64,000 nt of DNA from Candidatus Zixiibacteriota bacterium (GTDB lineage: Bacteria; Zixibacteria; MSB-5A5; WJJR01). A model generated the notes under the pieces. It saw only the letters and a program-made list of their open reading frames with translations, was not told where the DNA came from and did not search any database. Shown here piece after piece: positions 50,348-50,698 of this stretch. Location of the stretch: contig DASWIS010000001.1 in assembly GCA_036397555.1 (NCBI GenBank), forward strand, positions 120,854 through 184,853. Reading direction: 5' to 3'. The position numbers and the translations under genes are program-made. Each line of letters starts with the position of its first letter. Position 1 is the first letter of the stretch.

Positions 50348-50370
50348 TGATGGAGGCGGGGGGAATCGAA
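50348..50370 (+). repeat. 23-bp direct repeat copy 1 (duplicate of the tmRNA 3' end; attR-like)
   Basis: tgatggaggcggggggaatcgaa, identical to 50676-50698. Confidence 0.75.
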
Positions 50371-50405
50371 TGCGCCGGAGGCGCACAAGCCCCTTGGGCG
50401 CAGCT

Positions 50406-50666
50406 TTACCCGCCGCTGGCGGGCCGCGCCTGATTCTCCCATTCGTCCAGCCACTTACGGCCCTGACCGGACTTCAGGAATTTCTCACGAATCCGTGCCT
50501 GTGCGTGATCGGTGTACTCCTCTGTAAAGATCAGACGGAAATCTCCAAGCATTCGGCTCACCGACGTGCCGGCCGATCGATGCTCATTCAGACGCCGCGG
50601 CAGGTTGTTAGTGATGCCAACGTACCGGCGTCCGGAATCACCGCGCAGAACGTACACTGTAACCAC
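50406..50666 (-). CDS. small GIY-YIG (URI-domain) nuclease-family protein
   Basis: VYVLRGDSGRRYVGITNNLPRRLNEH GIY-YIG core. 86 aa. Lies entirely between the two 23-bp repeats. Confidence 0.7.
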   Translation of the reverse strand: MVTVYVLRGDSGRRYVGITNNLPRRLNEHRSAGTSVSRMLGDFRLIFTEEYTDHAQARIREKFLKSGQGRKWLDEWENQARPASGG

Positions 50667-50675
50667 GGATGGCTT

Positions 50676-50698
50676 TGATGGAGGCGGGGGGAATCGAA
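50676..50698 (+). repeat. 23-bp direct repeat copy 2 (the genuine tmRNA 3' acceptor/T-arm region)
   Basis: tgatggaggcggggggaatcgaa, contiguous with the rest of ssrA. Confidence 0.75.

Follow-up and report, generated by a model that had tools for sequence, protein, structure and literature searches.

A duplicated tmRNA 3' end borders a compact GIY-YIG nuclease insertion, a candidate self-maintaining element of tRNA and tmRNA genes

The 3' ends of tRNA and tmRNA genes are textbook landing sites of integrase-borne islands. Among the free-standing GIY-YIG homing enzymes, SegB is described as a site-specific endonuclease within a tRNA cluster (PMC2330249), and SegB-driven segmental amplification provides a precedent for tandem amplification beside a nuclease gene (PMC13096335). 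The 2006 survey of the superfamily treats the UPF0213-type proteins as a minimal GIY-YIG variant of unknown function, and mentions neither a linkage to tRNA genes nor a hairpin module (PMC1564403). Here, a locus is analysed in which the 3' end of a tmRNA gene (ssrA) is duplicated around a small GIY-YIG gene. We interpret the repeat as the edge of a compact selfish insertion of ~330 bp, which would belong to a self-maintaining, widespread and apparently undescribed family at tRNA and tmRNA 3' ends; in our estimate, this interpretation has about an even chance of being correct. A full-text literature search did not return a description of the family.

The exact 23-bp duplication on which the original prediction was built is present: the 23-mer, TGATGGAGGCGGGGGGAATCGAA, occurs twice and only twice in the window (the whole 64-kb stretch of DNA that was analysed; Table 1). 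The search for further copies yielded none in the window, even with up to 3 mismatches, and the chance expectation from 100 shuffles was 0 matches. Sequence identity between the two copies ends abruptly at both edges. In the tmRNA sense the 23-mer reads TTCGATTCCCCCCGCCTCCA followed by TCA, and comprises the T loop from nt 54, the 3' strand of the T stem, the 3' strand of the acceptor stem and the discriminator, plus 3 nt. The copy at 50676-50698 had been taken for the functional ssrA end, in agreement with ARAGORN, which finds a minus-strand tmRNA with the tag ADVYSYALAA, and with Rfam, in which the full-length model RF00023 (model positions 1-374) matches 50676-51037 with 173.6 bits. As for integrative elements, a direct repeat derived from the 3' part of an RNA gene is present, with the intact gene at one end.

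The repeats are spaced 328 bp from start to start and enclose 305 bp (50371-50675), which are wholly assigned to the GIY-YIG ORF, with its GTG start 9 nt past the tmRNA end, and to a hairpin module. The content originally reported for the bracketed DNA, one 86-aa GIY-YIG ORF and no integrase, was recovered from the ORF list, Pfam and the neighbouring genes. None of the eight neighbouring ORFs (within ~5 kb of the element) encodes an integrase, and 50371-50675 contains only the GIY-YIG ORF and an opposite-strand ORF without a Pfam match. Simple scans called no promoter or terminator inside the ~330-bp unit, no promoter-like site between ssrA and the ORF, and no T-run terminator in the native ssrA 3' flank. 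The original prediction had missed that the distal copy also holds the 5' strand of the T stem (GGGG), that a conserved 19-nt hairpin unit parts this GGGG from the distal 23-mer, and that another conserved hairpin extends over the final codons of the ORF. The segment corresponding to nt 40-53 of the spare tmRNA copy is degenerate in the window.

Table 1. Features of the ssrA locus, in positions of the window, from the intact gene to the downstream neighbour.
Feature	Position	Strand	Support
ssrA (tmRNA) gene, intact; CCA unencoded, TCA after the discriminator	50679-51037	-	ARAGORN, Rfam RF00023
Repeat copy 1 (DR1): functional tmRNA from T-loop nt 54 to the 3' end, plus 3 nt	50676-50698	-	
9-nt spacer from tmRNA end to GTG start, without Shine-Dalgarno sequence	50667-50675	-	
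86-aa stand-alone GIY-YIG nuclease ORF	50406-50666	-	Pfam PF01541, 4e-11
Hairpin H1, CCCGCC-AGC-GGCGGG	50409-50423	-	Exact match to family consensus
Stop codon TAA after H1, within conserved TAAAG	50406-50408	-	
Linker/hairpin H2 (AAGC..CCC AA GGGG..CTTG)	50386-50405	-	
H2 3' strand GGGG, copy of the tmRNA T-stem 5' strand	50390-50393	-	
H3 unit: CTTG, stem TGCGCC, loop TCC, stem GGCGCA	50371-50389	-	
Repeat copy 2 (DR2): T loop, T-stem 3' strand, acceptor 3' strand, discriminator, TCA	50348-50370	-	
Native ssrA 3' flank with GC hairpin GCCCCGATGCCAGGGGC	50309-50347	.	
Alpha/beta-hydrolase gene, convergent; GC hairpin GCCCCGATGCCAGGGGC common to flank and gene	49409-50308	+	

The ORF matches Pfam PF01541 with 43.4 bits (cut-off 22.6, E = 4e-11). 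In an alignment of 23 sequences R25, H29 and E61 are invariant, and Y5 and Y15 are found in at least 90%; these presumably include the catalytic set of the superfamily as assigned on I-TevI, namely the GIY and YIG tyrosines, an arginine and the glutamate that binds metal. The motif KFLKSGQGRxWL is specific for the subfamily. The AlphaFold2 model has an overall pLDDT of 86.3, with values below 50 in the tail; in this predicted structure the catalytic core extends from residue 1 to about residue 75-79, and no DNA-binding module is added to it. Tail residues 81-86 (PASGG) are encoded by hairpin H1, and the tail of the family (PAxGG) is disordered (pLDDT <50) yet nucleotide-invariant. The first three ranks of the Foldseek search include the UPF0213 structures 1zg2 and 1ywl and Slx1 (6seh), the last with an rmsd of 2.5 over 69 columns; the N-terminal domain of UvrC and the catalytic domain of I-TevI were further matches, all pointing to the GIY-YIG alpha/beta fold. 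The best sequence matches with known structure were again 1zg2 (3.7e-6) and 1ywl (2.9e-5). The protein matched no NCBIfam model and no defence-system model. Overall, on the basis of the predicted structure, the window protein is a bare catalytic GIY-YIG domain of the UPF0213/Slx1-like type and a predicted nuclease.

The H3 unit splits the second tmRNA copy precisely at the nt 53/54 junction, and DR2 runs straight into the native downstream flank. All 6 pairs of H3 are kept in 49 of 50 loci, with compensatory changes at four stem positions. In the alignment used to assess pairing (A2), 100% of the cells of H3 and 98.8% of those of H1 were paired, the latter with changes between CG and UA at one position; the overall value was 97.6%, compared to 39-48% in slid controls, and the observed covariation was reached by 0 of 500 shuffles. 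RNAalifold independently returned H1 and the interrupted T stem around H3. G.U pairs, which can form on the sense strand only, are present at the base of the H1 stem (20/23 sequences) and as the closing pair of H3 (23/23). Moreover, the identity of the module was 81-88%, against 34-65% at synonymous third positions. In view of the compensatory changes, the sense-only G.U pairs and a conservation far above that of synonymous sites, we conclude from the sequences that the module is selected as nucleic acid. The fold of the window module is not more stable than that of shuffles (z = -0.66), a measure that is uninformative in GC-rich DNA; the case for the structure rests on covariation. Within the element, nothing pairs with the acceptor 3' strand beyond the level of shuffles (5.45 observed pairs versus 5.56). 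Folding of the distal copy into a tRNA-like minihelix with a closing acceptor stem was considered and rejected, as the complement was no better than in shuffles. Nor could the module be assigned to a known RNA family: Rfam returned tmRNA only, with other models below threshold (tmRNA_permuted at 26 bits, for example).

The original prediction had left a choice between a reduced island and a minimal GIY-YIG-associated insertion, and the latter is favoured by the finding of the same architecture, after tRNA and tmRNA genes alike, in dozens of assemblies that are independent of one another. The sample consists of 81 loci encoding homologues with 51-73% identity, from at least 10 phyla, among them Zixibacteria, Desulfobacterota, Planctomycetota, Verrucomicrobiota and Marinimicrobia. 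A tRNA or tmRNA gene is located directly upstream on the same strand in 53 of the 81, at a median distance of about 25 nt (the spacer is 7-31 nt in 33 of these 53), and a tRNA-Pro gene directly downstream in 6; an adjacent tRNA on the opposite strand was found in none of the 81. The upstream genes specify tRNA for Pro, Glu, Ser, Lys, Leu, Val, Ala or Met, or tmRNA, and the targets comprise at least 9 different RNA genes (9 tRNA species, in addition to tmRNA). The distal repeat invariably corresponds to the RNA gene of its own locus, begins at T54 and mostly ends within a few nt of the RNA 3' end; depending on the locus, its right end lies 0 to ~50 nt beyond the tRNA. The H3 unit (CTTG plus a hairpin of 6 bp and 3 nt, 19 nt in total) occupies the nt 53/54 junction in 50/81 loci. 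The copied segment begins at ~nt 40-53 of the RNA gene, inside the 3' end of the ORF: nt ~40-53 of the local tRNA are copied in register just before H1 in 21/31 loci, and the T-stem 5' copy before H3 agrees with the local tRNA at 5/5 positions in 14/24 loci and at 4/5 or more in 20/24. Since the intact gene comes first and the T arm is split in the copy, the host keeps a complete RNA gene, and the spare copy is inactivated at a set position.

The order is reversed in four loci, in which the hairpins reside in an upstream full-length tRNA copy; in Opitutaceae, a broken full-length tRNA is followed by the nuclease and the intact tRNA. Perfect tandem units are present at two loci (324/324 and 320/320 identical positions), decayed remnants at three, and truncated copies without the module also occur. 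Protein relationships cross phyla at about 70% identity, and the distribution over the at least 10 phyla is patchy. The family was absent from phage and plasmid collections, where only remote matches of about 35% identity were obtained. A staggered cut with target-site duplication was rejected as the whole story on three grounds: the variable right end of the repeat, the copying from ~nt 40 and the reversed architecture. An origin of the distal copy from mature tRNA was also rejected, as the unencoded CCA is usually missing from both copies; the exceptions, at two loci, go in one direction only.

The dN/dS of the nuclease is 0.05-0.30, with dS up to >1, and the flanks are syntenic and diverge about as much as the element, which is inherited vertically within lineages. 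Proteins of identical sequence correspond to a single locus per population. Recent multi-copy spread was considered for two proteins found on many contigs and rejected; their context is constant across the contigs and there is thus no sign of several sites per genome. The comparison with related genomes that had been proposed for finding an empty site was successful for a relative of one family member, not for the window organism. In L100/L099, the flank found after DR2 in the filled loci L081, L084 and L008 comes directly after tRNA-Pro(tgg). This is the only example, and the relatives are not very close: L081 has 66% nt identity upstream, and L008, with 92.5% nt identity downstream, is rearranged. 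For the window organism, an exact-pattern scan of metagenome contigs failed to turn up the ssrA site in its predicted empty form. In the nearest strain, at 99.1% nt identity, the site is filled as well, on a contig that breaks inside the nuclease gene; none of the remaining homologues of the hydrolase next door exceeds 77% identity.

In the selfish-element model, the ORF would be transcribed by read-through from the ssrA promoter, and the nuclease would act on an unoccupied or newly vacated tRNA or tmRNA site. The element would then be reinstated by recombination via the tRNA homology, with the sister chromosome, an incoming homologue or an excised circle as donor. With the crossover on the right-hand side of the module, the result would be the order of the window (intact gene, nuclease, broken copy), and with the crossover on the left-hand side that of the Opitutaceae. 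The hairpin-split T arm would keep the spare copy from being a target, and the nuclease would counteract the precise loss that short direct repeats may permit. Such restoration would explain the purifying selection on nuclease and module through long vertical descent. The sparing of the intact gene is not accounted for, as its T arm is the same as that of the empty site; to tell self from non-self, the nuclease would have to rely on a cofactor or on the 3' flank. Nor does the model explain how the duplication originates on a tRNA species new to the element, since a hydrolytic 86-aa GIY-YIG enzyme cannot join DNA. Furthermore, vertical descent with strong purifying selection is atypical for a fixed homing endonuclease, and a host-useful or addictive function suits it equally well.

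The self/non-self problem would be settled, and the selection on DR2 and nuclease accounted for, if the module (H1, linker and H3, with the interrupted T stem as closing helix) were the RNA partner of the nuclease, either directing cleavage of vacated sites or acting as an RNA antitoxin that restrains the enzyme; on our analysis such a ribonucleoprotein is conceivable, though unlikely. Its single-stranded tail (acceptor 3' strand, CCA and native flank) would pair across the junction of RNA-gene end and flank, and because this junction exists beside an intact T arm only when the site is unoccupied, the RNA would direct the cutting of vacated sites. The module does overlap the ORF 3' end and is followed by host-derived sequence, like omega/reRNAs; the covariation and the sense-only G.U pairs suit a transcript, the acceptor 3' strand lacks a partner inside the element, and the protein is without a nucleic-acid-binding domain besides the catalytic core. 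However, we know of no GIY-YIG enzyme that is RNA-guided, 75-86 aa is very small for guided cleavage, the window module folds no better than its shuffles, the module is 5' of the ORF in the reversed loci, and much of the covariation would equally be expected from hairpins of sense-strand ssDNA or from a palindromic site bound by protein. That the module and the tRNA-derived single-stranded tail form an RNA cofactor which gives the 75-86-aa GIY-YIG domain its target specificity (the junction of RNA-gene end and native flank beside an intact T arm) is, in our judgement, distinctly unlikely. It is also rather improbable that the locus is domesticated, i.e. an ancient, immobile insertion retained for the benefit of the cell, whether by guarding the integration site against phages and islands with a tRNA 3' end in their attP or by processing or repair of tRNA/tmRNA genes or transcripts. 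Syntenic flanks at element-like identity, the low dN/dS (0.05-0.3), conservation of the module past synonymous saturation, one copy per population and the occupied nearest strain would all fit such a role, as would the location at tRNA/tmRNA 3' ends, which are reportedly classic integration sites; the patchy occurrence over at least 10 phyla and at least 9 RNA genes, the protein kinship across phyla (~70% identity), the truncated, decayed and tandem copies, the empty site and the failure to match known defence-system models argue against it.

The original prediction had seen in the repeats an attL/attR signature. Of this, what stands is the block of identity that runs from T loop to RNA 3' end, as at integrase sites; the missing integrase, the structured insert in the distal copy and the start of copying at ~nt 40-53 do not agree with it. 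A miniature cassette mobilised by a tyrosine integrase in trans, with the repeats as attL and attR, crossover within the T loop and the GIY-YIG gene as cargo, is highly improbable in our view. The block corresponds to the T-loop class of integrase sites, and both gene orders are expected from a circle-by-chromosome crossover, but no integrase is encoded within 5 kb, the cargo is constant (same nuclease, same hairpins) across phyla, a core-type integrase site would be disrupted by the 19 nt between the distal T stem and T loop, the right end of the repeat shifts from 0 to ~50 nt past the tRNA, and at least 9 target RNAs would demand as many integrase specificities. The other part of the original prediction, a larger genomic island that was deleted by chance to one gene, has a probability close to nil. 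An island would indeed leave the ssrA 3' end in two direct copies, but the same ~330-bp unit, with its ORF, hairpins and nt 53/54 junction, is constant across phyla in dozens of unrelated genomes, which random deletion would not preserve, and the 305 bp are fully explained by ORF plus module; the conservation at the family level refutes this reading.

The selfish insertion that we prefer resembles the free-standing GIY-YIG homing genes (T4 segB, I-TevI-type) as a small nuclease insertion at conserved RNA genes; occupied and empty sites, the latter from the one tRNA-Pro example, and decayed copies would be further common features. Homing GIY-YIG enzymes, however, have a C-terminal DNA-binding domain, whereas the present protein is predicted to be the bare catalytic domain; known homing leaves the target unduplicated, whereas here the 3' part of the RNA gene is duplicated, with a structured insert in the spare copy; and the T4-type genes are phage-borne, whereas the present elements are chromosomal in uncultured bacteria, vertically inherited and under purifying selection. 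With the integrase islands and prophages, the element shares the tRNA/tmRNA 3'-end target, the restoration of the gene by a copied 3' part, the displaced fragment beside the native flank and the identity block from the T loop. Those islands measure 5-100 kb, and the present element is 0.3 kb without an integrase; moreover, its hairpin module splits the displaced copy (50/81 loci), and the copied segment reaches into the ORF. The family would be a second, integrase-free occupant of tRNA/tmRNA 3' ends, a 0.3-kb unit with the smallest possible nuclease that is evolutionarily long-lived, and it would account for tRNA fragments or 'pseudo-tRNAs' with hairpin-split T arms that annotation pipelines miscall. 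The UPF0213 and prokaryotic Slx1-like proteins (BH0048, EF2693, YhbQ class) have the same minimal domain, but the solved members are only 27-28% identical to the present protein, and KFLKSGQGRxWL is restricted to the present subfamily; for one subfamily of these stand-alone proteins, among which two structures have been solved, the locus offers a first genomic context and a testable function. In the TnpB/IscB systems with their omega/reRNAs, too, a conserved structured module reaches over the nuclease ORF 3' end and directly abuts host flank, the nuclease is kept through vertical descent, and the logic of cutting vacated sites would fit. Their nucleases are of the RuvC (TnpB) or RuvC plus HNH (IscB) type, unrelated in fold to GIY-YIG; IS200/IS605 has the transposase TnpA, whereas the present element has neither TnpA nor another ORF; and the guide-like flank is here duplicated in the intact gene, RNA guidance being purely hypothetical for this element. 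Should the module supply the specificity, a new route to programmable DNA cleavage by a protein of ~80 residues would be opened, and if the RNA-cofactor reading is true, the family would constitute a new, extremely small class of nucleic-acid-guided, self-maintaining nucleases unrelated to the RuvC/HNH OMEGA and CRISPR systems.

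The 23-mer TGATGGAGGCGGGGGGAATCGAA was found exactly twice in the window, as originally predicted; no third copy was found there when up to three mismatches were allowed, and none is expected by chance. The identity ended sharply on either side of both copies. The right-hand copy was confirmed as the real 3' end of ssrA, being part of a complete tmRNA gene recognized by both ARAGORN and Rfam. In tmRNA sense the repeat reads TTCGATTCCCCCCGCCTCCA followed by TCA, and comprises T-loop nt 54, the T-stem 3' strand, the acceptor 3' strand, the discriminator and three further bases. 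CCA is not encoded by the gene; TCA (50676-50678) comes after the discriminator A and lies within both repeat copies. The 305 bp between the repeats held a single GIY-YIG ORF, in agreement with the original prediction (protein identical to its product: P0001). The genome that contains the window is a metagenome-assembled one of Zixibacteria.

Features of the element, and other observations, in the window
Feature	Position	Strand	Remarks
Distal repeat	50348-50370		displaced copy of the 23-mer
H3 unit	50371-50389		CTTG TGCGCC TCC GGCGCA
H1 hairpin and TAAAG	50404-50423		CCCGCC nnn GGCGGG TAAAG; encodes last five codons (P-A-x-G-G) and stop codon
GIY-YIG ORF	50406-50666	minus	86 aa; GTG start nine bases past tmRNA end; Pfam 4e-11
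Second repeat copy	50676-50698		3' end of functional tmRNA
tmRNA gene, complete	50679-51037	minus	ARAGORN; tag ADVYSYALAA
RF00023 match	50676-51037		173.6 bits; model positions 1-374
GC-rich hairpins	3880-4115	plus	intergenic
CTTG-hairpin match	3972-3990		CTTGCCCGCCTCGGGCGGG
Terminator-like hairpin	~4080-4115		strong, with T run
Toxin-domain ORF	45083-46279		PAAR-like and GHH2 HNH/EndoVII nuclease toxin domains
ORF	46276-47241		no Pfam match
ORF	47238-48485		HEAT repeats
ORF	51684-55271	opposite to ssrA	1195 aa; no Pfam match; start ~650 bp beyond ssrA 5' end
ORF	57852-63857		2001 aa, very large, near ssrA

Small homologues of the nuclease, usually of ~86 aa, number in the hundreds (116 clusters at 50% identity with E <= 1e-10, among 1.84 billion representatives searched). 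Eighty genomic loci encoding relatives, 51-73% identical, were fetched, which with the window gave a set of 81; the lineages represented are Desulfobacterota, Planctomycetota, Verrucomicrobiota, Zixibacteria, Marinimicrobia, Cloacimonadota, Sumerlaeota, Hydrogenedentota, Kiritimatiellae, Nitrospirota and others. A tRNA or tmRNA gene lay directly upstream on the same strand in 53 of the 81 (median gap ~25 nt): 16 tmRNA, 14 Pro, 6 Glu, 5 Ser, 4 Lys, 3 Ala, 2 Leu, 2 Val and 1 Met. Six more had tRNA-Pro directly downstream of the nuclease gene, seven were cut by a contig end, and at 15 no tRNA was called, many of these having a degenerate tRNA 3' end; none of the 81 had an adjacent tRNA on the opposite strand. 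Nearly all complete loci carried a direct repeat of the local RNA gene 20-100 nt past the stop codon. These distal repeats begin at the T-loop TTCGA/TTCAA and mostly end within a few bases of the RNA 3' terminus, occasionally extending up to ~50 nt beyond it. The insertion leaves the RNA gene intact, and what is conserved is a three-part unit: the nuclease gene, a structured module and a second, broken copy of the 3' portion of the RNA gene.

The module consists of a hairpin over the last codons of the ORF (H1), a linker and the H3 unit, which is 19 nt long (CTTG, a 6-bp stem and a 3-nt loop) and stands just upstream of the distal repeat. H3 was found in 50 of the 81 loci, with all six pairs kept in 49 and with different stems (TGCGCC/GGCGCA in 28, TTCGCC/GGCGAA in 10, TCCGCC/GGCGGA in 4, GTCGCC/GGCGAC in 2, TGTGCC/GGCACA and others). 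Directly before CTTG stands a copy of the 5' strand of the local RNA's T-stem (of 24 loci, 14 match at 5/5 positions and 20 at 4/5 or more), so that H3 interrupts the second T arm precisely at the nt 53/54 boundary. In 21 of 31 loci, the 6-14 nt before H1 repeat the local tRNA in register as far as nt 52/53, and thus the spare copy starts within the 3' end of the ORF; this segment is degenerate in the window. In an alignment of 23 sequences from nine RNA species, the proposed pairs were formed in 97.6% of cells, as compared with 39-48% when the partners were slid, and the observed covariation was attained by none of 500 shuffles. RNAalifold independently predicted H1 and an interrupted T stem enclosing H3. 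G.U pairs occur at the base of H1 (20/23) and closing H3 (23/23); these would be C.A mismatches on the opposite strand, which indicates that the sense strand folds, as transcript or as non-template DNA strand. No partner for the acceptor 3' strand was found inside the element, so this strand should be single-stranded.

The arrangement varies. H3 units are in tandem at four loci (L009, L058, L062, L071), inverted at the other T-loop edge (hairpin and CAAG/TAAAT) at L078, L069, L061 and L033, and placed after A58 at L011, L012 and L014. The order is reversed in Opitutaceae (L047, L051, L074, L080): a full-length tRNA-Pro pseudo-copy with its own upstream region and hairpin units in the T loop, then the nuclease gene, then an intact tRNA-Pro.

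AlphaFold2 (pLDDT 86.3) models the nuclease as no more than a GIY-YIG core, to about residue 79, with no DNA-binding domain; residues 81-86 are disordered, which fits a tail dictated by the hairpin and not by what the protein does. Among solved structures, BH0048 and EF2693 (both UPF0213) came closest; next were Slx1, the UvrC N-terminal domain and the I-TevI catalytic domain. No variation was seen in the catalytic Arg and Glu, and the two Tyr are kept in at least 90% of sequences. Defence-system models did not match the nuclease, and comparable genes were absent from the phage and plasmid collections searched.

A scan for the predicted unoccupied tRNA-Pro(tgg) site yielded two loci, L100 and L099, in which the tRNA runs straight into the flank found beyond the distal repeat at L081, L084 and L008, all of them filled. 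L100 has an upstream gene in common with L081 (66% nucleotide identity), and over 1.27 kb downstream it is 92.5% identical to L008. L008 (1-2303) holds the nuclease gene and a distal tRNA-Pro fragment without an intact upstream tRNA. Its upstream DNA bears no relation to that of L100, and the element may have been the site of a rearrangement. For the window's ssrA, no empty site was found in a metagenome search or in the strain-level relative. The latter (L101, contig Ga0299906_10000332; 99.1% identical over 4.6 kb) was occupied. Its 46-kb contig ends inside the GIY-YIG gene (4411-4589), and many family members also lie where a contig breaks off; assembly from short reads seems to be disrupted by the repeat and RNA gene.

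Perfect tandem units were present at L003 (324/324), L066 (320/320) and L037 (107/107), whole-unit duplications standing behind tRNA-Lys (2297-2944), tmRNA (2983-3622) and tRNA-Glu (2972-3419), respectively. Decayed module remnants lay up- or downstream of live copies at L041, L016 and L081. Downstream of the live element in L081 (~1850-2060) lie more decayed hairpin units along with tRNA-Pro 3' fragments, which resemble fossil layers left by earlier copies. Truncated ORFs without module occurred at L029, L036, L052, L055, L073 and L076. The L029 copy (2896-3237), behind tRNA-Pro(cgg), comprises residues 1-79 without H3 or distal repeat; its contig is binned as Bathyarchaeia (archaeon), reflecting cross-domain occurrence or a binning error. 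Flanks of related loci are syntenic and about as identical as the element; protein pairs above 80% identity share host clade and RNA target, and pairs of ~70% cross phyla and targets. This pattern points to mostly vertical inheritance with rare transfers and target switches. Both protein and nucleic-acid module are under selection: over vertical descent the dN/dS of the nuclease was 0.05-0.30, with dS reaching above 1, and the module remained 81-88% identical where synonymous positions were down to 34-65%.

No promoter-like site was found for the ORF; together with the constant strand and the short spacers without Shine-Dalgarno sequence, this suggests that it would be transcribed by read-through from the RNA gene. 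A unit with the module-split tRNA copy would recombine with the intact chromosomal gene to the right or left of the module, from which both gene orders are expected. Most likely, the nuclease serves to maintain and spread a selfish element: sites that are unoccupied or have been vacated would be cut, after which recombination would restore the element. Through the short repeats the element could be lost precisely; that they do recombine is shown by the perfect tandem units. However, the intact copy has the same T arm as the empty site, yet must escape cutting, and a move to a new RNA gene requires replacement of all tRNA-derived segments.

The sparing of the intact copy would find a possible answer if the module were an RNA (or single-stranded DNA) specificity factor whose tail pairs across the junction of RNA-gene end and native flank, since this junction stands beside an intact T arm only in the empty site. 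We give this reading, which is analogous to the logic of TnpB/IscB, a small chance. A host-useful or addictive function is possible, and vertical inheritance speaks for it. Two further readings are unlikely, given the recurrence of H3 and the lack of an integrase nearby: mobilization in trans by an integrase, and deletion of a larger island down to a remnant, as entertained in the original prediction.

Elsewhere in the window, the three ORFs at 45083-48485, a few kb from ssrA, have the appearance of a cassette of polymorphic-toxin and immunity genes. The hairpin stretch at 3880-4115, in which the exact CTTG-hairpin pattern is preceded by CAAG-TCCGC...GCGGA, is a possible small RNA or solo hairpin unit, with no credible Rfam match.

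A 2006 superfamily survey treated stand-alone prokaryotic Slx1-like proteins as a minimal form, with no genomic context given (PMC1564403). tRNA- or tmRNA-linked minimal GIY-YIG units and hairpin-split T arms were not described in the openly accessible full-text literature searched. The unit resembles free-standing GIY-YIG homing endonuclease genes, integrase-borne tRNA/tmRNA islands and OMEGA elements, but lacks a defining feature of each. We class it with the nuclease-driven selfish elements, as an apparently undescribed variant, although the odds that it is of a more distinct kind are appreciable.
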